Positions 40,639-54,612 of a DNA stretch of 64,000 nt are shown here, one piece after another. Source of the DNA: Patescibacteria group bacterium (GTDB lineage: Bacteria; Patescibacteriota; Patescibacteriia; Patescibacteriales; UBA12465); contig JBMNFW010000001.1 of assembly GCA_050949525.1 (NCBI GenBank), positions 527,890 through 591,889 on the forward strand, written 5' to 3'. The translations under genes and the position numbers were made by a program. Numbering within the stretch: the stretch's first letter is position 1; every line of letters begins with the position of its first letter. Under the pieces are notes generated by a model that made no database searches, was not told the DNA's origin, and saw only the letters and a program-made list of their open reading frames with translations.

Positions 40639-40914
40639 TTACTTCAAAAGTTTATCACGATTAAATGAATAATCATCAATAAAGCTTTTTTGATTTCCCC
40701 AGAAATAAGTTTCTAGGAAAATCAGGATTTCTTGTGGAGTCATGTTTTGGAACAAATCATGATATTTATCATGATATGACTCCATAATTAGTATTAAGTT
40801 GTCTGGCTCATCACTTCCACCACGACTCCGTGGTATAATATGATGAGTTGTAAGCGCCTGATTTTTACGGCGCTTTTCTCTTTTATTACTATTTCTTTCG
40901 CGACTGTGATTCAT
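40639..40914 (-). CDS. Small HNH endonuclease
   Basis: 91 aa from ATG 40914. THHIIPRSRGGSDEPDNLILIMESYHDKYH is an HNH motif (H-N-H). The upstream part of track ORF 40639..40977 is really tRNA-Thr. Confidence 0.7.
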   Translation of the reverse strand: MNHSRERNSNKREKRRKNQALTTHHIIPRSRGGSDEPDNLILIMESYHDKYHDLFQNMTPQEILIFLETYFWGNQKSFIDDYSFNRDKLLK

Positions 40915-40916
40915 CT

Positions 40917-40992
40917 TGGAGCCGTCTTCGGGGCTTGAACCCGAGACCTTTTCCTTACCATGGAAACGCTCTACCAACTGAGCTAAGACGGC
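40917..40992 (-). tRNA. trnT: tRNA-Thr (anticodon GGT), CCA encoded
   Basis: Acceptor GCCGUCU/AGACGGC, anticodon stem UUUCC/GGAAA, loop AUGGUAA, T-arm UCGGG-UUCAAGC-CCCGA, 3' UCCA. Confidence 0.9.
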
Positions 40993-41798: not shown

Positions 41799-42542
41799 TT
41801 AAAAATTCTTAATTATATTAACAAAATCCAAAGGCTTTAAACTAGCTCCACCAATTAAAAAACCATCTAAATCTGTTAGATTTTTAAAATCAAGATAATT
41901 ATTTAAATTAACACTACCACCATAAACAATTTTAAAGCGCCAGGATTTAGCCTGCAAAACCTTTTTAATAGCCTGAAAAGCCTCAACCGCTTCTAAGGGT
42001 TTAACTGTTAATCCACTACCAATCGCCCAAACTGGTTCATAGGCAATAATAATTCTAGCTGAATCAATTTTATCTAATTTTGAAAAAGCAGTCTGAAGTT
42101 GCTGTTTAATAATTTTAATTGTTTCCCCCTTTTTCCTTTGTTCCCAAGTTTCGCCAATAGCTAAAATTGGAACAATATTACTATTCTCTAAAACATTCTT
42201 TAATTTATCAGCCACTAAACTATCATCAGAAAAATATTGACGTCTCTCACTATGACCAATTAAAACAAATTGAGCCTTGACTTGCTTTAAAGATTCTAAA
42301 GGAACCTCTCCGGTATAGGCTCCGAGAGGAAAAGGGGCCACATCCTGAGCACCATAATAAATCCGAGAATCTAAATTTTTAATCACCTCCGGTAACGCTA
42401 AAAAATCAGGTAACACTACAACTTGATGTTGCGTTTTAATCTTAACTAAAGAACGAGATAAACTCCGGCTCAAAGCCAAAGCAGATTTCAAATCTAAGTT
42501 CATCTTCCAATTAGCAATAATAATTTTTTTATTCTTTGACAT
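41799..42542 (-). CDS. tpiA: Triose-phosphate isomerase
   Basis: 247 aa. IIANWKMN, IGHSERR, AYEPVWAIGSG and GGASL motifs. Confidence 0.92.
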   Translation of the reverse strand: MSKNKKIIIANWKMNLDLKSALALSRSLSRSLVKIKTQHQVVVLPDFLALPEVIKNLDSRIYYGAQDVAPFPLGAYTGEVPLESLKQVKAQFVLIGHSERRQYFSDDSLVADKLKNVLENSNIVPILAIGETWEQRKKGETIKIIKQQLQTAFSKLDKIDSARIIIAYEPVWAIGSGLTVKPLEAVEAFQAIKKVLQAKSWRFKIVYGGSVNLNNYLDFKNLTDLDGFLIGGASLKPLDFVNIIKNF

Positions 42543-45580: not shown

Positions 45581-46039
45581 ATGAACCCCTACTTAATGTT
45601 TCTCACTCCATTTATAGCCGCGGGATCAGCCCAATTTATTAAAATTCTAATTGGTCATCCCAAGAAACTAAGTTTTAAAGATTTATTCCGACTCACCTAT
45701 GCGGGAATGCCTTCAGGACATAGCGCTTTTGTATCCTCATTAACCATGCTCATAGCCTTAATTCAAGGTTTTAATTCTCCCATTTTTCTTTTAAGTTTAG
45801 TATTTACCTTCATCGTTATTAATGATGCTCTTAAACTAAGGCGTTATTTAGGAAAACAAGGTGAAGTTATTAATACTCTCATTAAAGACTTAAAAGAAGA
45901 TCAATTTTTAGATGAAGAATACCCGCTATTATTAGAAAGAATTGGACATACAAAAATAGAGGCCCTAGTTGGATCTCTATTAGGAATATTGGTTTCTTTA
46001 ATAATGTTTTTTTTAATTGATCCTTTTCTGTTTAAATAA
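45581..46039 (+). CDS. Divergent PAP2 family (DUF212) membrane protein
   Basis: 152 aa. GMPSGHSAFVSSL motif with four TM helices. Convergent 8-nt overlap with the next gene. Confidence 0.7.
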   Translation: MNPYLMFLTPFIAAGSAQFIKILIGHPKKLSFKDLFRLTYAGMPSGHSAFVSSLTMLIALIQGFNSPIFLLSLVFTFIVINDALKLRRYLGKQGEVINTLIKDLKEDQFLDEEYPLLLERIGHTKIEALVGSLLGILVSLIMFFLIDPFLFK

Positions 46040-46889
46040 AGCTATCTTCTTTCATGCTAGAGCTAAGAGGCAAATTTAGAATCTTTAAGATACTCGGAGC
46101 AATTTTTAAATAGTTTCCCTGAGGACTCAATAAACTAAGATCATTATTAGGAGCTTCTTTAAGACCAATAGTCTTGCCCATAAAATTTGATCCGATAATT
46201 AATAAAGGAACATTATTTTTTGTTCTTTTTTTGTTAGCTAAACCAGTACCTATATTAAAAACATCTTCCGCTCCACCATAAGCACTGCTAACTATTAAAA
46301 CTCCATCCACTTCTAAAACCGCCGTAGCGATTTTATCTAAATAAGCTGAAACATTTTCTACCGCTGAAATAACTGACAAAAAATCCCCCTTTAATACTTC
46401 TTGCCCAATCTCAGAAATACAAGAGAAAATAAAATTATAACTATTGGACTTAATATTTTTAATTAAAGTATCAACTAAATCATTGGAATTAAAAAAGGAT
46501 TTTAATAAACGCCGACGATTATCCACTATTAACCAATCCTCCCCGGTTAATCGACTAGAACTCTGATTAAAAAAAGTCGACACTAGAGGAAAATCAGAAC
46601 TACTAGCTATCCTTAATTGTCTTAAATTAAACTGAGAAATAATTTTAGCCACTGAAATTGGAGACTGGACCTCGCTCTCAGGATGACAAGAGCAGCCCAT
46701 AGATCGATAAGTTCGACTTAATTCAAAATCCCAGCCCTCTAAAACCGTAGCTGGAAAATTATTAACTAAATTTTTAAACCCAGGGATCTGAGCTTTGCGA
46801 ATAGCATTATTCTCAGTATTAAGAGAAATACCCCAACCATCGAGATTAAGAAAAACTAATAATTTATTTTTAACCGTAGTACTAGGCAT
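46032..46889 (-). CDS. Truncated, active-site-degenerate homolog of cofactor-independent phosphoglycerate mutase (iPGM)
   Basis: 285 aa from ATG 46889 (track ORF starts at TTG 46904). LNLDGWGI...NAIRKAQIPGF matches the iPGM N-terminus and FNLRQLRIASSSDFPLVSTFFN...GEDWLIVDN matches LRQLRIAETEKYPHVTFF...GEDRILI. The whole transferase domain, the catalytic Ser and the metal ligands are missing. Confidence 0.65.
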   Translation of the reverse strand: MPSTTVKNKLLVFLNLDGWGISLNTENNAIRKAQIPGFKNLVNNFPATVLEGWDFELSRTYRSMGCSCHPESEVQSPISVAKIISQFNLRQLRIASSSDFPLVSTFFNQSSSRLTGEDWLIVDNRRRLLKSFFNSNDLVDTLIKNIKSNSYNFIFSCISEIGQEVLKGDFLSVISAVENVSAYLDKIATAVLEVDGVLIVSSAYGGAEDVFNIGTGLANKKRTKNNVPLLIIGSNFMGKTIGLKEAPNNDLSLLSPQGNYLKIAPSILKILNLPLSSSMKEDSFI

Positions 46890-48135
46890 AAAGATTTTCT
46901 TCAATTTCCATTAAACGATTATACTTAACTAATCTTTCACTTCGAGATAGGGATCCTGATTTTATATACTCAGCCGATACTGCTACTGATAAATCAGCAA
47001 TAAAGTCATCACAAGTTTCTCCACTTCGATGTGAAATCATTAATTTATATTTATTAGCTTGAGCTTTTTTAATCGTATCAATAGTTTCTGATAAAGTTCC
47101 AACTTGATTGGGCTTAATTAGAATAGCATTAGCCGCTTTATTCTTAATACCTCGACTCAACCTAACCTTATTAGTCACAAACAAATCATCACCAATCAAG
47201 ACAACTTTAGATCCTAAACTTTTGGTTAATTTTTGCCAAGAAGTCCAATCATCTTCCGCCAAACCATCTTCAATAAATAACAATTTATATCTTTCATACC
47301 AATCTCGATATAAATTAATTAAATCATCAGATTTTAAAGCCTTACCAGCTAATTGATAAGTCTTGGTTTTAGAATCAAAAAACTCTGAAGATCCAACATC
47401 ACTTCCTAAAAAGAAATCTCGACCCAGTTCATATTTTAAATTTTTTCCAGCTACTTTAATTAAATCTAAGGCCGCTTGATTATCCGCAAGATCAGGTGCG
47501 TAACCACCCTCATTACCCAATCCAGTGCTTAAACCTTGACTCTTTAAAATCCGACCTAGCTCATGAAAAATCTCTGAACCCATTCTAATCTTTTCCGCTA
47601 CTGATTTAATAGCGGGATTAGGTACTATCATAAACTCCTGAAAATCAAGATTATTATCAGCATGAGCCCCACCATTAATAATGTTAAAAGATGGGCTAGG
47701 AAGACGATACTTTTTAGAAAAACCAAAACTATCAGCTAAATATTCATATAACTCCATCTCCTTAAACTTAGCAGCTAATCGAGCCGTAGCTAATGATAGA
47801 GCTAGAATAGCATTAGCCCCTAATCTATCCTTATTCTTAGTACCATCTAATTTAATCATTATTTGATCAATCTTTTTTGGCTTTAAAATATCCTGACCAA
47901 TTAAAGCTTTAGTTAATGGTCCATTGATATTCTTCACAGCTTTTAAAACACCTAAACCTCGATATCTCTTTTTATCCCTATCTCTTAACTCACACGCTTC
48001 ATAGGCTCCCGTAGAAGCCCCTGATGGAACACTAGCCTTAGCATTTAAGCCATTACTTAAAAAAACTCGAGCTTCCACCGTCGGATTTCCTCGAGAATCT
48101 AAGATCTCTCGTCCTTTAATTTTAGTAATAATCAT
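46882..48135 (-). CDS. eno: Enolase
   Basis: 417 aa. REILDSRGNPTVE, SGASTG..EA.ELRD, SHRSGET and SRSERL.KYN motifs. Confidence 0.97.
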   Translation of the reverse strand: MIITKIKGREILDSRGNPTVEARVFLSNGLNAKASVPSGASTGAYEACELRDRDKKRYRGLGVLKAVKNINGPLTKALIGQDILKPKKIDQIMIKLDGTKNKDRLGANAILALSLATARLAAKFKEMELYEYLADSFGFSKKYRLPSPSFNIINGGAHADNNLDFQEFMIVPNPAIKSVAEKIRMGSEIFHELGRILKSQGLSTGLGNEGGYAPDLADNQAALDLIKVAGKNLKYELGRDFFLGSDVGSSEFFDSKTKTYQLAGKALKSDDLINLYRDWYERYKLLFIEDGLAEDDWTSWQKLTKSLGSKVVLIGDDLFVTNKVRLSRGIKNKAANAILIKPNQVGTLSETIDTIKKAQANKYKLMISHRSGETCDDFIADLSVAVSAEYIKSGSLSRSERLVKYNRLMEIEENLYA

Positions 48136-48150
48136 ATATTTAAATTAATT

Positions 48151-49317
48151 TTAATTAATCCCCGGCATCTTTTGTCCGGATAAATAACTTAACATCGCAC
48201 CTCCACCAGTTGATACCCAATCAAAATCCTTCTTAACTTGAGCTAAATTCACTGCTGCCACGGTTTCACCTCCCCCAACTAAACTAAAAGCTCCGGCTTT
48301 AGATCTTTTAGCAATAGCCTTAGCTAAGTTTAGGGTTCCTGATCTAAACTCCTCTTTCTCAAAATAACCTAAAGGTCCATTCCAAACTATAGTTTGAGCT
48401 GATTTGATATATTCAGAAAAAAGTTTTAAAGTTTGTGGTCCTAAATCTAAAATATTATCATATTCCGTTATTTGCTCCAGTCTTTTATTCATCACTTTAG
48501 ATCCATTAGACTTCACCACCACATCACTAGGTAGTATAATTTTTTTAGTCTTTAAAAGTTTTAATAACTCAACCTGATTAAAATCATCAACTAATGATTT
48601 ACCAGTTTCAAAACCCTGAGCTTGAAAAAAATTATTAGCTAAGGCTCCTCCAATTAAAACATAATCAGCTATCTTTAATAGTTTTTTAATAATAGCTAAT
48701 TTAGTAGAAATCTTAGCCCCTCCCATTACCACCACTAAAGGTTTTTTGGGAGAAAGTATTTTATTCAAATTATTAATCTCTGCTTCTAATAATAATCCTG
48801 CATAAGCTTTAACATCTGTATCTAAAATAGCGGAAATGGAAGAATTAGCTCGATGAGATACCGCAAAAGCTTCATTAACATAAATTGGTGCTAATGAAGC
48901 AAAAGATTTAGCTAAACGACGACAATCTCGCTCTTCTCCTGGATAAAATCTAAGATTATCTAAAGCAAAAATTTTAACATCTTTTTCAGATTTTAAAATC
49001 CGCCTAACATCAGTCCACTTAGAATAATTTTGATAATCAAAAAAGAAAATTTTTTGATTTAAATTTTTAGCTAAATGATTAATAACGGGTCGAAGAGAAT
49101 ATTTGGAATCAAAACCATTTTTAGGTTGCCCTAAATGACTAGCAATAATCAAACGATTATCATTTTGAAGTAAAAGATTAATCGTGGCTAAACTTTGTTG
49201 AATTTTAAAATCTTCTTTAATCTTACCTTTCTCTTGAGGTAAGTTAAGATCTAAACGCAAAAAAACTAACTGCCCCTTAATTAAATGAAGATTAGGTTTT
49301 AAACTTTTTAATCTCAT
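48151..49317 (-). CDS. pgk: Phosphoglycerate kinase
   Basis: 388 aa. RLDLNLP, SHLGQP, NEAF.VSHRA, MGGAK.S.K and GGGA motifs. Confidence 0.93.
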   Translation of the reverse strand: MRLKSLKPNLHLIKGQLVFLRLDLNLPQEKGKIKEDFKIQQSLATINLLLQNDNRLIIASHLGQPKNGFDSKYSLRPVINHLAKNLNQKIFFFDYQNYSKWTDVRRILKSEKDVKIFALDNLRFYPGEERDCRRLAKSFASLAPIYVNEAFAVSHRANSSISAILDTDVKAYAGLLLEAEINNLNKILSPKKPLVVVMGGAKISTKLAIIKKLLKIADYVLIGGALANNFFQAQGFETGKSLVDDFNQVELLKLLKTKKIILPSDVVVKSNGSKVMNKRLEQITEYDNILDLGPQTLKLFSEYIKSAQTIVWNGPLGYFEKEEFRSGTLNLAKAIAKRSKAGAFSLVGGGETVAAVNLAQVKKDFDWVSTGGGAMLSYLSGQKMPGIN

Positions 49318-49320
49318 AAA

Positions 49321-50415
49321 CTATTTTAATTCTACTTTTAATTCCATTAATTGTCCTTCCCGTAGCACTATAATACTTAATTTATCTCCTGGAATAAAAT
49401 TATTTAAAACATCATTAAAATTAGCCTTATCATTAATTTCATGATTATTAACCTGAGTAATAATATCTCCAGCAATTAAACCACTAGATTCAGCCAAAGA
49501 ACCGGCTACAACTCGAGAAACTATATTACCTTTTAAAGGTAATTTAGGATCAATAACATTCTTTAAATCTAAATACCAAAGACCAAATTTAAGTGGGACC
49601 ATTTCTTTATTCTTCAAAAAACCATAAATTAAAGGCCGAAAAGCATGAACACTTTCCACTTCCAAGTTCTTATTAATCAAAGCAATCAAATCTCCGCTCA
49701 GGTTAAAGATATAGGCTTGGGCAAAATTATCATCAATATCTTGACTTAAGTTAATCTGACTATGATACTGATCCGAAAATTTTAAATCCTCCCCAGAATC
49801 AATTGATTTAATAGCATTTAGAGCTAGTTCACCTTGAAAATTATATAATAAAACAGTCTGACCAGGATTAAGATCAGAAATATTTGAAAAATTTCGTACC
49901 GGTAGATTAGTAGCTTTTTTAATTTTAACTAACAGAAAACCCTCCGAACTAAAATCTAAAACCTCTTCAATCTCCTGAACCTTTTTTTCTTTTTTGGACA
50001 CTAATACATAATCCTCAATTTTATTCACTATATCTAAATTAAAATCTTTTTGCCCTAAAATATTAACCATCACCCAACCATCACTACTAATTACTAAGCC
50101 AGAAAAAAGCTCCTCTCCTAAACTATAACTATCCTTCTCATTTTTTAAAAAAATACCCACTACTGATTCATTTAAATAATTAAGAGTTTCATCAATTTTT
50201 AAATCTTGACTAATATATACTCGTCGCGGATCCTGAATCACTAAGCTAGTATTATTATACTTAGGAGAATCGAGGTCTAAACTTTGATTTAAATCTCTTA
50301 AAGTATTTAAAGAAGATAAAGAAAGAGATAAAAAAATCAAAGTTCCAATTGTTAATCCTAAAATTAGAATTAAAATAATAGTGGTAAAAATTGAACTTTT
50401 TTTTGTTTTTTTCAT
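49321..50415 (-). CDS. Membrane-anchored HtrA/DegP-like protein with PDZ domain; catalytic triad not recognisable
   Basis: 364 aa. N-terminal TM and a C-terminal PDZ (GSLAESSGLIAGDIITQVNNHEIND...). The trypsin-like blocks read VNILG (for TNNHV), GFLLVKI (for DLALLKI) and FNLSGDL (for GNSGGPL). Confidence 0.6.
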   Translation of the reverse strand: MKKTKKSSIFTTIILILILGLTIGTLIFLSLSLSSLNTLRDLNQSLDLDSPKYNNTSLVIQDPRRVYISQDLKIDETLNYLNESVVGIFLKNEKDSYSLGEELFSGLVISSDGWVMVNILGQKDFNLDIVNKIEDYVLVSKKEKKVQEIEEVLDFSSEGFLLVKIKKATNLPVRNFSNISDLNPGQTVLLYNFQGELALNAIKSIDSGEDLKFSDQYHSQINLSQDIDDNFAQAYIFNLSGDLIALINKNLEVESVHAFRPLIYGFLKNKEMVPLKFGLWYLDLKNVIDPKLPLKGNIVSRVVAGSLAESSGLIAGDIITQVNNHEINDKANFNDVLNNFIPGDKLSIIVLREGQLMELKVELK

Positions 50416-50422
50416 AGTTTCT

Positions 50423-51160
50423 TTAACGCCATTTGACTGATAATAATATCAAAATCAAAAGGGATATTATAAAAATTAAATTGTATTTTATTTTTTTAGG
50501 CCCTAAGTCTCTATTTAAATAAAGCCTAATAAAGCTTAGACCAGCATAATAAAGTACTGATAATAATAAAGCAATAATATTATAATTAAACGGCAGAAAA
50601 AAGAAAGACCAAATAAGAGGAATTAGGGATAATAAAAATATAATCAAGAAAAATACCGACAAGGACCTGGGTTGAGATAATAAAGAAATATTAAGCCCAG
50701 CTATTAAAAATATAAAAATACTAAGAAATAGAAAAACCCAAACCGAATTAATATTCAAGAAATAATTTAAACTATAGAAAAAAGAACTAGCTAAAAAAAC
50801 TGATAACAAGCTAATAATATCACTCCAAACTAATAAACTAGTAAACTTTCTTTTCTTTAAATTTAAACAATAACAATAAGACAGAATAATAGCTATTAAA
50901 ATAAAAAAGATAAAATAAAATGACGGAACTGAAATTGATAAAAAGAAAAGAAAACTATTAAGAAAGAAAAAAGGTAAAAGGGGTAAAAGAAATTTATCTC
51001 GATTCCATAAATCTTTTCGAAAAAAAAGAATCAAAAAAGAAAACAGAAAAACATTAAAAACAATAATAAAATAATAAAACAAACGAGACCAGATAAAAGC
51101 TGAACTAATTATCAGAAAAAATAATAAATGACTAAAAAATATTTTCTTTCTTAAATTCAT
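50423..51160 (-). CDS. Polytopic membrane protein, function unknown
   Basis: 245 aa, Phe/Leu/Ile/Ser-rich, about 7 predicted TM helices. Confidence 0.55.
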   Translation of the reverse strand: MNLRKKIFFSHLLFFLIISSAFIWSRLFYYFIIVFNVFLFSFLILFFRKDLWNRDKFLLPLLPFFFLNSFLFFLSISVPSFYFIFFILIAIILSYCYCLNLKKRKFTSLLVWSDIISLLSVFLASSFFYSLNYFLNINSVWVFLFLSIFIFLIAGLNISLLSQPRSLSVFFLIIFLLSLIPLIWSFFFLPFNYNIIALLLSVLYYAGLSFIRLYLNRDLGPKKIKYNLIFIISLLILILLSVKWR

Positions 51161-51161
51161 A

Positions 51162-51463
51162 ATTTACTGCCCCAATTTCAAATCCTTAATCAATTTTAAG
51201 TCTTCCAGATTACTAATCTTCATTGATTTGGAAAAAATAGAGTAAAGATAATCTTCAATATATAAAGCTCGTTGAACTCGAGAAGAATGAAGATAATCAC
51301 TAGCTTGACCCTATTTACTGCCCCAATTTCAAATCCTTAATCAATTTTAAGTCTTCCAGATTACTAATCTTCATTGATTTGGAAAAAATAGAGTAAAGAT
51401 AATCTTCAATATATAAAGCTCGTTGAACTCGAGAAGAATGAAGATAATCACTAGCTTGACCCT
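51162..51463. repeat. Perfect 151-bp tandem duplication (51162-51312 and 51313-51463)
   Basis: The two units are identical base for base. Unit 2 is the last 49 codons plus stop of 51315..53471; unit 1 is a non-translated copy between that gene and the start of 50423..51160. Confidence 0.92.
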
Positions 51464-53471
51464 TCAAATGATTAATTTCTCCCTTTAACTTTATCTGATT
51501 ATCAATAATTTCAAACACCAAAAAACCGCTGAACTTTATATTATCCCAATAATCGCCACTTAAAGAATCAGCGAATAATAAAACTGGAACTACAATAATA
51601 TTTTTATCTACTGAAGCTAAGAAAGCATGATGATCATATAAAGCCGCCGATTCACTATAACGATTACCAATGACATAAGAATCTAACTCCACTGGAGTAT
51701 CAGCTGAAACATCAAATAATGATAATTTTAATCCAGTATTAACTACCCGATCATTAACCAAATCAGTAGCTCGACCAAAACCAATTAATTGCTGATCTTT
51801 CCAAGGATGAAGATAATTAGAAAATCCCGGAATTTTTAATTCTCCAGAAATTACTGGATGATAAGGATTACTTAAATCTAAAGAAAATAAAGGATCTATT
51901 TGTTCAAAAGTAACTACATAGGCCTGATCCCCTAAAAATCGGACAGCATAAATTCTCTCTCCCGGGGCCATATTTTCTAAACTAGATATAATTTGTAAAT
52001 TAGAATCTAAGATATACACATTATTACTAGTTTCCGAAGCCGAAGCATATTTAGACCAAGAAACATTTCTAGTAGTAGCTACTCGGAAAAAACTCTGATA
52101 TTCATCTAAAGAAAATTGATTTAGCAAAGATCCAGGAACAGTTCCCTCCACCATTGGCTCCACAATACCATTAAGAGCTGAAAGTTTGTAAATCACTGTA
52201 GTTTCTACCTCATTTTCAATATTAGGATAACGCTCTAAAACCGCTTGAGTTAATTCTTTTTCTAAAGATTCCTGCTCTGATAAACTTAAAAGAGAAACAT
52301 AAAGATCTAAAACTTGTCTAATCTTATACCTCTTCTCACTAGCACTTAAAACCTTTTCCGAAGTATTTTTTATCTCTTCAATTAGATCTCGATCTTTGGT
52401 ACTTAATTTAAGATAAACTAAATCTAATAAAACTTCAGACTCAATATCATATTCATTTAAATATTTGGTATAAGCCAAATAAATATTATTAGGAGAAACA
52501 TAGATATGCTGACTAGCTGGTAATAGATAATGACTAGAGCGAAGATCATTTTTAGAATCAAAAATATTAATTGAATAAATTGAAGAAAAACTAAGACTAT
52601 CGTAAATAGTATCAAAATAATAAACCTCGGACGGATAACATTTTAGACCCTCCTGACACATTAAATCTATTTTTTCTCCTTGATAAAGAACTTCAGGTAA
52701 AATTCTCGGGGATAAATTATAATTATTAACTATAAAATAAACATGATCACCAATTAAGCGAGAATTAAAATATGATCCATCTATTTTAAAATCTTTTTCC
52801 TTAATCGGAGTTTGAGGATCACTAACATCGAAGACCTGTAAAAAAACTTGAGAAGAAAAACTCGGATAAATAGCTATTTTTTCATTATTATTAGAATTAA
52901 AATCATTACCAAAAACTACTAATTTACCATCTTTTAAATAAATATTTAAAGGCTGATTCTCAAATTTCATATGACTTAAAACTTGAGCCTTTTCCACTGG
53001 ATATGATTCTGTAATATACAAATCTTGATCACTTAAAACGTAAATATACTGACCATCAGTTTTAACAACATCAGCCTCGTCAACTCCTTCAACCTGAATA
53101 TTAGTTTCAGAAAAATCGACCGACTGATCAACACTATCAGCCATATCAGCCATTAGCTTATTAGTAGCAAATTCTACTAACGGCATCGAACTTTCTCTTT
53201 TTAAATTACGACTATGAATGTTAGTATTATTTAAATTTTCTTCAACAAAACTCTCTAATTCCTGGTACGAAGCAAAACTCTTTATTAAACCATTGCCATT
53301 ATTACTAAAAAAATCTCGAGAAGGAAGTTGGGTAATAACATTTTTTTGATCAATTGGTTTTTCCGCTACCATTAAATCCTTTATCTTTAAAATCACAAAA
53401 GAAACAATAATAACTACTAAGAAAAAAGATAAAATGATAGTTTTAAAATTAAGTTTTCTCTCCGATGACAT
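51315..53471 (-). CDS. Secreted beta-propeller domain protein (COG4880/PF09826-like)
   Basis: 718 aa with an N-terminal TM/signal anchor. FSETNIQVEGVDEADVVKTDGQYIYV is the characteristic Beta_propel block. Confidence 0.65.
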   Translation of the reverse strand: MSSERKLNFKTIILSFFLVVIIVSFVILKIKDLMVAEKPIDQKNVITQLPSRDFFSNNGNGLIKSFASYQELESFVEENLNNTNIHSRNLKRESSMPLVEFATNKLMADMADSVDQSVDFSETNIQVEGVDEADVVKTDGQYIYVLSDQDLYITESYPVEKAQVLSHMKFENQPLNIYLKDGKLVVFGNDFNSNNNEKIAIYPSFSSQVFLQVFDVSDPQTPIKEKDFKIDGSYFNSRLIGDHVYFIVNNYNLSPRILPEVLYQGEKIDLMCQEGLKCYPSEVYYFDTIYDSLSFSSIYSINIFDSKNDLRSSHYLLPASQHIYVSPNNIYLAYTKYLNEYDIESEVLLDLVYLKLSTKDRDLIEEIKNTSEKVLSASEKRYKIRQVLDLYVSLLSLSEQESLEKELTQAVLERYPNIENEVETTVIYKLSALNGIVEPMVEGTVPGSLLNQFSLDEYQSFFRVATTRNVSWSKYASASETSNNVYILDSNLQIISSLENMAPGERIYAVRFLGDQAYVVTFEQIDPLFSLDLSNPYHPVISGELKIPGFSNYLHPWKDQQLIGFGRATDLVNDRVVNTGLKLSLFDVSADTPVELDSYVIGNRYSESAALYDHHAFLASVDKNIIVVPVLLFADSLSGDYWDNIKFSGFLVFEIIDNQIKLKGEINHLKGQASDYLHSSRVQRALYIEDYLYSIFSKSMKISNLEDLKLIKDLKLGQ

Positions 53472-53539: not shown

Positions 53540-54612
53540 AGTCCACGTCATTTTGGAAAAAAATTATTATTAACCAAATAATTCATCGGAGATACTAATT
53601 CAAGGCTCCAATGTGGTCTATCGGTATTATACCAAAGAAGCCAATCAATTAACAAATTATTAAAATCATCTAAATTATCAAAGTATTTTTCACCACTCCA
53701 ATCAATGAATTCTTCTTGAATAGTCCTATTAAACTTCTCAATATGACCCTGTTTGTATGGTCTACCTGGATAATTGAAATAATGCTCAATTTTTCTCTCT
53801 TCTAAGTATTTTTTAAAATAGAGATGGAATTCTAAACCATTATCAGTCTGAACAGCCTTAATATTAAAGGGCATGACTTCTTCTAATTTTTTAAAAAAAT
53901 CTTTAGCATTAGAGCTACTAATTCTGTTATAGGCATAAGCGAAAGCTGTTCGGCTAAAAGTATCAACAGCGGTAATAATATATCTCTTTAATCCATTGTG
54001 AAATCTAACAACAGTATCTATCTCTATTAAATCCCCAGGATTATTTACTTGTAATTCCTTAGGTTTTCTTTTCTTTTTAGTTTTTTTAATTTTTTTAATC
54101 TTACCAAAATGAGATATTTTCTGTCTATGATGATATATATCTTTATCTTTAATAATTCTACCTATCTTTGATTCTGAGTATATTGGTAAATTATTAATTT
54201 CACAAAATTTATCTAAAAATTTTTTAACTTTAGTTTTATCCATATTAGGACAAATCTCTAGTCTTAAACGTCTAATCTCTTTTAATATCAGAGGATGTAT
54301 TTCTCTTTTATTCTTGTTAATCCTAGCTTGGGATTTAGGATTGAGAGCTTCTATCTTGCCACCCCCTTCTCTAAATATTTTTTGCCAATTGTATAGGGTA
54401 GATTTTTTAACCCCAAAGGCATCAGTAGTGGCTTGAAGGCCATATTGCTTCCAAAATTCTAATATTTTGAGTCTTTGTCTAGCTTCTTTGGTAATCATAT
54501 ATTTTTGCTTAATTGCATCATTATATAATGTACCAAATCCGGGACAATTATAGTACTTAAACTTTATCTGCATACATTTTGGGCTTTTTATTTTCCAAAA
54601 TGTATCTGAACT
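53540..54612 (-). mobile_element. IS481-like (IS3/IS481 superfamily) insertion sequence, ~1073 bp
   Basis: Imperfect terminal inverted repeats AGTCCACGT-CATTTTGGAAAA (53540-60) and AGTTCAGATACATTTTGGAAAA (reverse complement of 54591-612). Possible 4-bp TSD TATT (53536-39 and 54613-16). Single DDE transposase ORF. Confidence 0.75.
53548..54573 (-). CDS. DDE (rve/integrase core) transposase, IS481-like
   Basis: 341 aa. N-terminal HTH (KKSTLYNWQKIF), then IEIDTV...ITAVDTFSR...VQTDNGLEF...YNTDRPHWSL. The stop lies inside the left IR. Confidence 0.85.
   Translation of the reverse strand: MQIKFKYYNCPGFGTLYNDAIKQKYMITKEARQRLKILEFWKQYGLQATTDAFGVKKSTLYNWQKIFREGGGKIEALNPKSQARINKNKREIHPLILKEIRRLRLEICPNMDKTKVKKFLDKFCEINNLPIYSESKIGRIIKDKDIYHHRQKISHFGKIKKIKKTKKKRKPKELQVNNPGDLIEIDTVVRFHNGLKRYIITAVDTFSRTAFAYAYNRISSSNAKDFFKKLEEVMPFNIKAVQTDNGLEFHLYFKKYLEERKIEHYFNYPGRPYKQGHIEKFNRTIQEEFIDWSGEKYFDNLDDFNNLLIDWLLWYNTDRPHWSLELVSPMNYLVNNNFFPK

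Follow-up and report, generated by a model that had tools for sequence, protein, structure and literature searches.

The 64-kb stretch of patescibacterial DNA analysed here (the window) carries intact pgk and eno genes with no canonical phosphoglycerate mutase (PGM) between them, which raises the question of how carbon moves from 3-phosphoglycerate (3PG) to 2-phosphoglycerate (2PG) in these ultra-small bacteria. Directly after eno lies a short gene whose product is labelled by IMG as a cofactor-independent PGM (iPGM). What this protein is, and whether it could supply the missing step, depends on which parts of an iPGM it retains and on how it has been treated by selection.

The short gene lies on the minus strand, which corrects the strand of the original prediction, and runs from an ATG at 46889 to a stop codon at 46032-46034, encoding 285 aa; an alternative upstream start (TTG at 46904) would give 290 aa. 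The ORF coordinates agree with the earlier description of a 285-aa frame that directly follows eno with an 8-nt overlap, the ATG falling within the final eno codons (Table 1). At its 3' end the gene is overlapped, again by 8 nt, by a convergent DUF212 gene, and thus there is no space for a hidden second domain. The eno translation contains the sequences SGASTG, IEDG, GDDL, KPNQVGT and SHRSGET, the signature motifs of enolase, which match its active site. A convergent DUF212-gyrB pair separates the short gene from tpiA, whose position is kept in relatives. The original prediction had named a frameshifted fragment of a full-length gene as the contrary case, and this is not what we find: iPGM-like fragments were not detected in the other frames of the 64-kb window, and the intact ORF encodes an identical protein on contigs of four independent samples (independent assemblies).

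Table 1. Coordinates of the short iPGM-derived gene, its parts and its glycolytic neighbours in the window.
Feature	Position	Strand	Evidence or remarks
Short iPGM-derived gene; phosphatase (alkaline-phosphatase-like) domain only	46032..46889	(-)	ORF list, sequence, PF01676, AlphaFold2, Foldseek
N-terminal phosphatase segment, residues 9-54	46728..46865	(-)	Aligns to 1EJJ 4-49; hhalign of N-terminal blocks E = 1e-20
10-aa deletion site, between Leu57 and Ser58	46716..46721	(-)	Profile-profile and MAFFT alignments
Junction/linker, residues ~66-78, where the ~230-aa phosphotransferase domain is missing	46656..46694	(-)	Alignment gaps, pLDDT
C-terminal phosphatase segment, residues 79-285	46035..46655	(-)	phmmer to 1EJJ 316-474; hhalign E = 2.6e-62
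Loop insertion GKTIGLKEAPNNDLSLLSPQG, residues 238-258	46116..46178	(-)	Present in copy-2 proteins, absent from copy 1 and canonical iPGMs
8-nt overlap ATGCCTAG, eno end and short-gene start codon	46882..46889	(-)	Sequence
eno, enolase, 417 aa, directly upstream of the short gene in the operon	46882..48135	(-)	PF03952 and PF00113
pgk, phosphoglycerate kinase, 388 aa, upstream of eno	48151..49317	(-)	PF00162
tpiA, triose-phosphate isomerase, ~3.5 kb downstream of the short gene	41799..42542	(-)	PF00121

The homology of the short protein to both halves of the iPGM phosphatase domain is far beyond chance. The Metalloenzyme family PF01676 matches it over profile positions 6-250 of 252 (E = 9e-16), and the score of 58.6 bits against a gathering score of 24.3 places the protein within this domain family. 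The scores against the NCBIfam iPGM equivalogs fall below both cut-offs, at 67.3 bits for TIGR01307 (cut-off 330.65) and 73.7 bits for NF003897 (cut-off 862). With phmmer, residues 9-54 align to residues 4-49 of the PDB chain 1EJJ and residues 79-234 to residues 316-474, and a profile of the short family aligns to the iPGM profile with E = 2.6e-62 (hhalign). The AlphaFold2 model is a confident fold (pLDDT 92.4, pTM 0.92) that matches iPGM structures in Foldseek with E ~1e-16 and TM-scores of 0.78-0.81 normalised to the query. The phosphatase-domain fold is thus shared with iPGM/GpmI (TIGR01307, PRK05434; PDB 1EJJ, 1O98, 2IFY, 5VPU) at a query-normalised TM-score of ~0.8, as are the motifs DGWG, NAI, QL(R/K)IA, FFN, GED, xGxAE, NPVP and IAPTIL, and the short gene, like that of iPGM/GpmI, adjoins eno within a glycolytic operon. 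Descent from iPGM, originally proposed from an alignment by eye, is therefore upheld by the PF01676 match, the 1EJJ and profile-profile alignments and Foldseek, and these include both the profile alignment and the structure prediction that had been suggested as checks.

The other half of the enzyme is gone, as had been predicted. The Pfam scan gave no match to PF06415 (iPGM_N) in the short protein, which lacks the two-domain architecture of iPGM, ~190-240 alignment columns being absent. The substrate residues of the transferase domain, His123, Arg153, Asp154, Arg185, Arg191, Arg257, Arg260 and Arg262 (catalytic residues are numbered here according to the Bacillus stearothermophilus iPGM), have been lost with it. 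The junction left behind is variable, and residues 71-80 have a lower pLDDT (82) than the rest of the model.

The remaining phosphatase domain has lost almost all of its catalytic residues. The N-terminal segment holds ENNAIRKA and DGWG, in which Asp17 is the equivalent of the metal ligand Asp12. Beyond this segment, the profile-profile alignment places a 10-aa deletion that takes out the GLPxGQMGNS loop carrying the nucleophile Ser62, such that GNSEVGHxNxGAGR of iPGM corresponds to (deleted)-SRTYRSMGCSC and His66 to Tyr61. Ser58, a residue conserved across 94% of the close clade, pairs with Glu63 in this alignment, a single column away from Ser62, and may be a vestigial serine in its place. 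Lys336 is replaced by Asp99, and five of the six metal ligands are lost (D403 to G162, H407 to L166, D444 to A203, H445 to Y204 and H462 to R222), leaving Asp12 as the sole survivor among nine phosphatase-domain catalytic residues. Compared with iPGM/GpmI, the short protein is hence without PF06415, the Ser62 loop, Lys336, Asp403, His407, Asp444, His445 and His462, and it has an extra loop of ~12-17 aa. The original prediction was right about the loss of the serine motif and of the metal ligands, including the replacement of DH by AY at D444 and H445. Its by-eye register was off by a few residues for two motifs: the serine motif is deleted in place of being substituted, and D403 and H407 correspond to G162 and L166 and not to Glu and Gln. 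Asp12 is retained. With the transferase domain, the Ser62 loop, Lys336 and five of six Mn ligands lost, interconversion of 3PG and 2PG by the iPGM mechanism is not to be expected, and the short protein, judged from its sequence, cannot be the iPGM-type mutase that some pipelines label it as.

The origin of the short gene is revealed by relatives in which eno is followed by two iPGM genes in tandem, copy 1 and then copy 2. Such tandem pairs are present at loci L011, L047, L050, L060 and L061; at L011 copy 1 is intact and the adjoining copy 2 is already shortened. The full-length copy 2 (L047 5995-7611, L060 11601-13217 and L061 3055-4644) is ~530 aa long, has 17 of 17 scored catalytic residues and adjoins copy 1, whereas the short protein is half its size and catalytically dead, with no copy 1 beside its gene. 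The two have in common their position downstream of eno and an EAPNNDLSL-type loop, located between the NPVP strand and the IAPT helix (GLKEAPNNDLSLLSPQG in the window). This loop (EAPNNDLSLL) is the best-conserved clade-specific segment, residues 245-253 being 96-100% conserved, and it lengthens the spacer at this point to 34 aa in the window protein (canonical iPGMs, 17 aa; copy 1, 22 aa). We define membership of the copy-2 lineage, a class introduced in the present analysis, by the ~12-17 aa loop with its D-[LIVM]-[ST] motif, which the window protein possesses; of 51 short proteins 49 contain this motif, and all 150 copy-1 or canonical proteins lack it. Searches with the short protein likewise give phmmer E-values of 2e-41 to 2e-30 against copy 2 and only 1e-13 to 2e-10 against copy 1. 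These comparisons indicate that copy 2 is the direct parent lineage of the short gene. The word relic, used in the original prediction, holds as regards descent from iPGM, while the loop insertion and the tandem loci identify the gene as a copy-2 paralog and not as the remnant of a housekeeping PGM.

A chimera, in which a single deletion would have joined the N-terminal part of copy 1 to the C-terminal part of copy 2, was considered and rejected, since the N-terminal segment (YPAT-type) is nearer, if weakly, to copy 2, and since L011 keeps copy 1 beside a shortened copy 2.

Across the copy-2 lineage, full-length and short proteins range from having all to having none of the catalytic residues. 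Short forms keep from zero to nine of the nine phosphatase-domain residues, the full set being retained in a few short relatives (P0063, P0251 and P0341), and many full-length copy-2-like proteins are eroded too. Partly metal-competent orthologues that keep D12, D403, H407 and H445 occupy the same gene position at L035-L039 and L048, and a dead full-length form directly follows eno at L064. (The apparently degraded enolase gene at L064, of 369 + 78 aa, was ruled out as such and reflects a scaffold gap, a run of N.) At L065 a gene whose product ends in DEMTGRSLI, the typical iPGM C-terminus, precedes another dead full-length form, and a dead copy-2 form placed downstream of another iPGM gene implies that the copy-2 lineage has a role other than PGM. 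The Falkowbacteria-like clade to which the window belongs has no copy 1 at this locus, where eno is followed by the dead short form alone. A tree built from the phosphatase domain by neighbour joining, which is too coarse for events to be counted, places intact-site short forms apart from the large eroded short clade and suggests that the domain may have been lost more than once.

The short form is nonetheless a persistent gene. The search recovered 61 short proteins among 90%-identity clusters, and short forms make up about 70 of the 150 best representatives at 50% identity. Intact ORFs of ~280-300 aa are present in ~35 species-representative genomes of Patescibacteria, and the order pgk-eno-short is found in almost all species with readable flanks. 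The short gene follows eno in 36 species, and in 33 of these it starts at -14 to +13 nt relative to the eno stop. The dN/dS of the short gene, taken at dS 0.5-2 in the eroded short clade, is 0.06-0.18, compared with 0.04-0.19 for pgk, 0.05-0.19 for tpi and 0.02-0.12 for eno. This purifying selection, comparable to that on pgk and tpi, is the outcome of the conservation and dN/dS check proposed with the original prediction, and together with the ~35 genomes it bears out the view that the gene is intact, translationally coupled and no simple pseudogene. The short gene is conserved as tightly as real glycolytic genes, and these sequence comparisons suggest that its job is probably non-catalytic.

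Searches for a conventional PGM returned nothing in the regions covered. When all stop-to-stop ORFs of the 64-kb window were searched by phmmer with a patescibacterial iPGM and an approximate E. coli GpmA, the short ORF was the sole match, and Pfam scans of 20 further window ORFs turned up no kind of PGM. Across all loci, a scan for the RHG motif detected no dPGM-like gene in the patescibacterial flanks (10 kb), and neither the window nor the 10-kb flanks of ~36 species contain an iPGM-, GpmA- or other PGM-like ORF. Copy-1 iPGM searches, which have low power as they cover the best 120 of 8000 matches each, tied none to contigs with short forms. The absence of a PGM at the locus and in the 64-kb window is consistent with the first of two alternatives originally offered, that no PGM step is encoded here, and the second, a non-catalytic or new function, is consistent with a level of constraint typical of a functional gene. 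Jaffe et al. 2020 (PMC7304191) report several shallow Parcubacteria clades in which PGM was not detected, the supplements to that study containing no per-genome PGM matrix. For one related ABY1 genome, the P. danicum paper lists gpmB in place of gpmI. Literature searches combining Falkowbacteria or ABY1 with phosphoglycerate mutase, or iPGM with pseudoenzyme, returned nothing.

The reading that we favour on balance, if with modest conviction, is that the short protein is a catalytically dead iPGM paralog of the copy-2 lineage kept for a non-catalytic role. It has the hallmarks of a pseudoenzyme, namely homology to an enzyme without the essential catalytic residues, purifying selection and a predicted fold. 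That the gene is a decaying relic, a slow pseudogene or an assembly or frameshift artefact without function would accord with the progressive erosion of catalytic residues across the family. However, we consider this reading refuted by the selection and conservation data, and hardly tenable given the low dN/dS at dS 0.5-2, the intact ORF in so many species-representative genomes and in ~70 clusters at 50% identity (among the 150 best), the 40-odd residues that are invariant across the clade, the confident predicted fold and the identical protein in four independent samples. The chance that the short protein is instead the phosphatase half of a split iPGM, with the transferase half encoded separately, is close to negligible: the domain-only architecture and the complete phosphatase-domain residues of P0063, P0251 and P0341 are what such a split might leave, yet in the window clade those residues are lost, and there is no iPGM_N-like ORF within 10 kb at any short-only locus or in the 64-kb window.

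A more serious alternative, though one we still think unlikely, is that a remodelled pocket binds a phosphorylated metabolite (3PG, 2PG or PEP) or carries out a new, metal-independent reaction, making the protein a sensor or a new enzyme. The best-conserved segments include loops around the former active site (DGWG, GGAED and NKKRT-N-VP). The well-conserved Ser58 beside the Ser62 column would sit at the N-terminus of a predicted helix (57-66), the His462 position is always Arg or Lys in the close clade and is preceded by NKK, the His445 position is mostly aromatic (usually Tyr or Phe), Asp17 is mostly kept, and selection equals that on enzymes. Against this, members of the close clade differ from one another at D403 (G/S/K/A/I), H407, D444 (A/T/S/V), K336 and in the Ser62 column, and the Asp12 position, mostly Asp otherwise, is Asn, Pro or Ala in sub-clades. 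Such variation at former ligand positions speaks against the exact rebuilding of a catalytic or ligand site, and one shared chemistry is hard to picture for orthologues that span partly metal-competent to fully eroded forms. We give very little credence to the possibility that the short protein itself converts 3PG to 2PG by a non-iPGM mechanism, alone or with enolase or another protein, in genomes that have no other PGM. It would explain why the flanking pgk and eno are intact and strongly constrained at a locus that lacks the canonical copy 1, which relatives carry between eno and copy 2; the PGM-free window and flanks and the shallow Parcubacteria clades without detected PGM also speak for it. 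Nevertheless the protein lacks the substrate-holding transferase domain and the nucleophile loop as well as Lys336 and five of the six metal ligands, none of the known phosphomutase chemistry is left, another iPGM gene precedes a dead copy-2 form in at least one case, and a GpmA/GpmB- or ApgM-type enzyme elsewhere in the genome is quite possible, as the gpmB of the related ABY1 genome illustrates. A bolder proposal, which we regard as rather improbable, is that the Falkowbacteria-like clade has no conventional PGM at all and that the short protein would be an obligate partner of enolase (possibly of PGK), enabling metal-independent conversion of 3PG to 2PG or rewiring lower glycolysis to bypass the step. 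It should be noted in relation to a non-catalytic role that housekeeping-level constraint, and intact pgk and eno around a missing PGM step, mean that the protein could still contribute to that step.

If the short protein is a non-catalytic copy-2 paralog, its retained function would be one of binding, scaffolding or regulation, and surface features that are invariant in the clade (the EAPNNDLSLL loop and the ENNAIRKA and NKKRT segments) may mediate it. The most economical partner would be a glycolytic neighbour, enolase first, given the translational coupling of the two genes, and we put enolase forward as a tentative candidate for this partner. The same gene order would arise by inheritance from an ancestral glycolytic operon. 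The short proteins are usually acidic (median pI 5.2), whereas Pgk (9.8), Tpi (9.6) and Eno (8.9) are basic, which faintly suggests electrostatic partnering; the window's own short protein is not acidic (pI 8.35).

An iPGM label on a protein unable to be a PGM would lead to glycolytic completeness being overstated, and reconstructions of CPR/Patescibacteria metabolism that accept such labels would count lower glycolysis as complete. The short family may also explain part of the PGM absence under strict HMM thresholds in some shallow Parcubacteria clades (Jaffe et al. 2020, PMC7304191). More generally, the family presents many living stages in the change from enzyme to pseudoenzyme, comprising tandem duplication, loop gain, domain loss and active-site erosion, with purifying selection during erosion as strong as on pgk and tpi where measured (in the eroded short clade).

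Within the Metalloenzyme/alkaline-phosphatase superfamily, phosphopentomutase (DeoB), ApgM/PH0037 (archaeal-type), alkaline phosphatase and the sulfatases have the same core alpha/beta fold and give weaker Foldseek matches to the short protein (E ~1e-9). All of them are active metalloenzymes that possess both a nucleophile and a bimetal site, and the DeoB and ApgM mutases additionally carry an inserted cap domain; unlike DeoB and ApgM, the short protein has neither the nucleophile and bimetal site nor the cap. A possible analogy is with the prozymes of AdoMetDC and deoxyhypusine synthase in trypanosomatids, where a dead paralog acts as partner of an active enzyme. As with the prozymes, a dead duplicate is here maintained under purifying selection, and in some relatives the dead short-lineage copy is encoded beside its live paralog. 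The short gene differs from them in that the live paralog is absent from the locus in the window clade, and in the loss of a whole domain.

The short protein belongs to the phosphatase domain of cofactor-independent phosphoglycerate mutase (iPGM) by both sequence and structure. Its sole Pfam match is PF01676 (Metalloenzyme; E = 9e-16), which is covered nearly in full, and its scores of 67-74 bits against the NCBIfam iPGM equivalogs are far below the cut-offs of 330 and 862. Alignment to PDB sequences pairs residues 9-54 with residues 4-49 of B. stearothermophilus iPGM and residues 79-234 with 316-474. These blocks correspond to the two parts of the phosphatase domain, and nothing in the short ORF matches the intervening stretch, which takes in the entire transferase domain. 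With 61 family members as input, AlphaFold2 yields a confident model (pLDDT 92.4, pTM 0.92), whose best PDB matches are iPGMs (E ~1e-16, query-normalised TM-score 0.78-0.81).

Among the catalytic positions of iPGM (B. stearothermophilus numbering), only Asp12 is kept, as Asp17. The loop of the nucleophile Ser62 is gone, a 10-residue deletion spanning GLPxGQMGNS, and the other positions are substituted: His66 by Tyr61, Lys336 by Asp99, Asp403 by Gly162, His407 by Leu166, Asp444 by Ala203, His445 by Tyr204 and His462 by Arg222. The residue map and alignments thus bear out in substance the original prediction that the transferase domain, catalytic Ser motif and Mn ligands are missing, with its by-eye register for the Ser and D..H motifs slightly off. 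Ser58, which is 94% conserved in the close clade, begins a predicted helix (57-66), one column away from Ser62, and may be a vestige of the nucleophile. Judged by its sequence, the short protein should be unable to act as an iPGM.

The window is AT-rich (G+C ~31%), with nearly all genes on the minus strand. The predicted ORF is present, and its strand, previously left unstated, is minus. An alternative upstream TTG start at 46904 would add 5 residues. Because an identical protein in the same gene context occurs on contigs of four independent samples, the short gene is not an assembly or frameshift artefact. Both pgk and eno are intact. Translated eno contains SGASTG, IEDG, GDDL, KPNQVGT and SHRSGET, which we take to be the enolase active-site motifs. 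The gene string ahead of the short gene recurs in L008, L013 and L062 (L numbers denote loci collected from relatives); gaps are 3-15 nt from the 245-aa unknown gene onward, and the string has the appearance of a single long operon in which glycolysis genes stand beside those of envelope-type proteins. The rve-family element is missing in L001 and L002, both encoding the identical short protein, and looks like a strain-level insertion. The HNH ORF (PF01844 in L001) is flanked by a Band_7 gene and by a TPR protein gene beside tpiA.

Features of the window and of related loci discussed in the text
Feature	Position	Strand	Remarks
HNH endonuclease ORF	window 40639-40977	minus	small, stand-alone
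tpiA	window 41799-42542	minus	same strand as short gene, further downstream
DUF212 gene			convergent with short gene; 8-nt overlap at its 3' end
Short gene	window 46032-46889	minus	ATG 46889, stop codon 46032-46034; 285 aa
eno	window 46882-48135	minus	8-nt overlap with short-gene start, ATGCCTAG; short-gene ATG within last eno codons
pgk	window 48151-49317	minus	15 nt before eno
PDZ protein gene		minus	364 aa; between 245-aa unknown and pgk
Beta_propel gene		minus	PF09826, 718 aa; first of gene string
Conserved gene string	window 46032-53471	minus	tightly spaced: Beta_propel, 245-aa unknown, PDZ, pgk, eno, short gene
rve-family integrase/transposase	window 53548-54573	minus	IS element; between Beta_propel gene and rny
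23S_rRNA_IVP gene	L011 7873-8244		PF05635; between eno and iPGM copy 1; 1.27-Mb contig
P0061	L011 10001-10912		transferase-less copy 2
P0217	L064 1654-3225		directly after eno, without copy 1
P0231	L065 135-1712		preceded by gene ending DEMTGRSLI, a typical iPGM C-terminus

The short gene represents a conserved family and is no relic. Searching 5.8 billion proteins brought up 61 short ones (258-303 aa, 27-100% identity), with full-length iPGMs first appearing at E = 1e-18; those named by organism are all labelled Patescibacteria or Falkowbacteria. When one genome for each GTDB species was scanned with a pattern, ~35 species-representative genomes showed short forms. In a profile search, 925 of 1.84 billion cluster representatives matched at E <= 1e-30, and the best 150 of these include ~70 short proteins and ~74 of roughly 520 aa. 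The order pgk-eno-short is found in every locus without a full-length iPGM that reaches far enough upstream, and the distance from eno stop to short-gene start is -14 to +13 nt in 33 of 36 species. Between species pairs at 72-92% protein identity, Nei-Gojobori dN/dS of the short gene (0.06-0.18) falls in the range of its neighbours (pgk 0.04-0.19, tpi 0.05-0.19, eno 0.02-0.12), and the gene is therefore constrained like these enzymes. Many species-representative MAGs with a typically patescibacterial locus (L017-L020, L022-L024, L026-L028, L030-L031, L039-L040, L046, L050) come from binchicken co-assemblies titled 'uncultured Gammaproteobacteria bacterium', an organism label that is evidently wrong.

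Several related genomes (L047, L050, L060, L061) have a tandem iPGM pair after eno, both copies being full-length with 17/17 scored catalytic residues. The second gene, copy 2, carries a ~12-17 aa insertion between the NPVP strand and the IAPT helix (GWGEAPNNDLSLISPQG in L047) that is absent from copy 1 and canonical iPGMs; the window protein has GLKEAPNNDLSLLSPQG at this site. In the collected sequences the NPVP-IAPT spacer measures 34 aa for short proteins, compared with 22 aa for copy 1 and 17 aa for canonical iPGMs, and a D-[LIVM]-[ST] motif occurs in 49 of 51 short proteins versus none of 150 canonical or copy-1 proteins. With phmmer the short family matches copy 2, to which it is far closer, at E 2e-41 to 2e-30, and copy 1 at 1e-13 to 2e-10. 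In L011, eno is followed by a small ORF, a full-length copy 1 and a copy 2 of 303 aa. In this copy 2 the transferase domain is already gone, all metal ligands remain, and Cys occupies the Ser62 position. The shared loop, the closeness to copy 2 and the L011 arrangement indicate that the window gene descends from this paralog; an origin as a decayed housekeeping PGM is rejected, as the loop and phmmer similarity point to copy 2. At L049 a full-length protein has a copy-2-type loop, with neither eno nor a second iPGM within the flanks.

Catalytic residues have eroded by degrees. Between nine and none of the nine phosphatase-domain residues are kept among 130 short proteins, with at most one in 64. 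An orthologous sub-clade at the same gene position (L035-L039, L048) keeps Asp12, Lys336, Asp403, His407 and His445; the window's clade keeps Asp12 alone, replaced by Asn in some relatives. Erosion extends to many full-length copy-2-like proteins, where it affects both domains (6/17 residues kept in P0217, 7/17 in P0231, 2/17 in P0310; P numbers denote proteins found by the searches), and the first two have the copy-2 loop. Loss of catalytic residues does not, therefore, depend on domain deletion. These three, P0339, P0279 and others are ~520 aa, match the short-family profile strongly and keep 2-7 of 17 residues. The split enolase of L064 (369-aa and 78-aa ORFs), including the 'Enolase_C fragment' reported by gene callers, is an artefact of a run of N, a scaffold gap, at ~1340-1345. 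A further set of transferase-less copy-2 proteins (P0061, P0262, P0264, P0286, P0259) has Cys for Ser62 (GNCEAGH) with all or nearly all metal ligands kept, and by sequence these might be Cys-nucleophile phosphatases; the one in L011 adjoins a normal iPGM.

These properties bear on what the protein does. Plain decay, consistent in itself with the lost residues, is highly improbable for a gene under strong purifying selection. The gene is also tightly linked to eno. The absence of a PGM of any type from the 64-kb window, and from within 10 kb of the locus in ~36 species, would give room for a hidden role of the protein in the PGM step, a reading we consider improbable. A split enzyme, with the transferase domain encoded as a separate gene, is scarcely credible. 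Copy-1-type iPGMs were not matched to short-form carriers among the best 120 of 8000 matches, a low-powered comparison. PGM went undetected in several shallow Parcubacteria clades (Jaffe et al. 2020, PMC7304191), and the short family could account for part of that absence, if the clades are the same. In KEGG-based tables for Patescibacterium, a related ABY1 genus, nine of ten genomes have gpmI and the other has gpmB (PMC11809585), so non-homologous PGM replacement occurs in the class. A remodelled, metal-free ligand or catalytic pocket is unlikely, though less so: the former ligand positions vary within the window's clade. The EAPNNDLSL loop, ENNAIRKA, NKK-R and ~40 further positions vary little or not at all there. 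The selected feature of the protein does not need iPGM chemistry.

We lean towards a pseudoenzyme derived from a glycolytic mutase, from a paralog lineage with many members lacking catalytic residues. Such a protein would act non-catalytically, as a binding, scaffolding or regulatory subunit, with the clade-specific loop as candidate interface and a glycolytic neighbour, enolase first, as the most economical partner. Interactions among PFK, PGM and enolase have reportedly been seen in Bacillus subtilis; by analogy an enolase-binding remnant would be plausible, as a lead only. Median pI is 5.2 for the short protein versus 9.8 for Pgk, 9.6 for Tpi and 8.9 for Eno at the same loci, an opposite charge that hints weakly at partnering; acidity is not universal in the family, the window's own protein having a pI of 8.35. 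Most copy-2 phosphatase domains and short proteins have an acidic pI (about 5-6); copy 1 tends to be basic, at ~9 in four of five examples.

Where named in NCBI records, short forms are "hypothetical protein"; IMG names them iPGM, and this annotation of P0004, P0014, P0015, P0040, P0042 and P0043, IMG-type short proteins from the 5.8 billion-protein search, probably gives rise to false 'complete glycolysis' calls. No description of truncated or dead iPGM homologues turned up in full-text literature searches. The family offers an unusually complete evolutionary series, has practical consequences for annotation and poses a question on lower glycolysis in these bacteria that can be tested. No characterised protein is known to work in the way of the short protein. 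It fails all the sequence-based tests that define an iPGM, and by descent is a member both of the PF01676 Metalloenzyme fold family and of the patescibacterial iPGM copy-2 lineage defined here.
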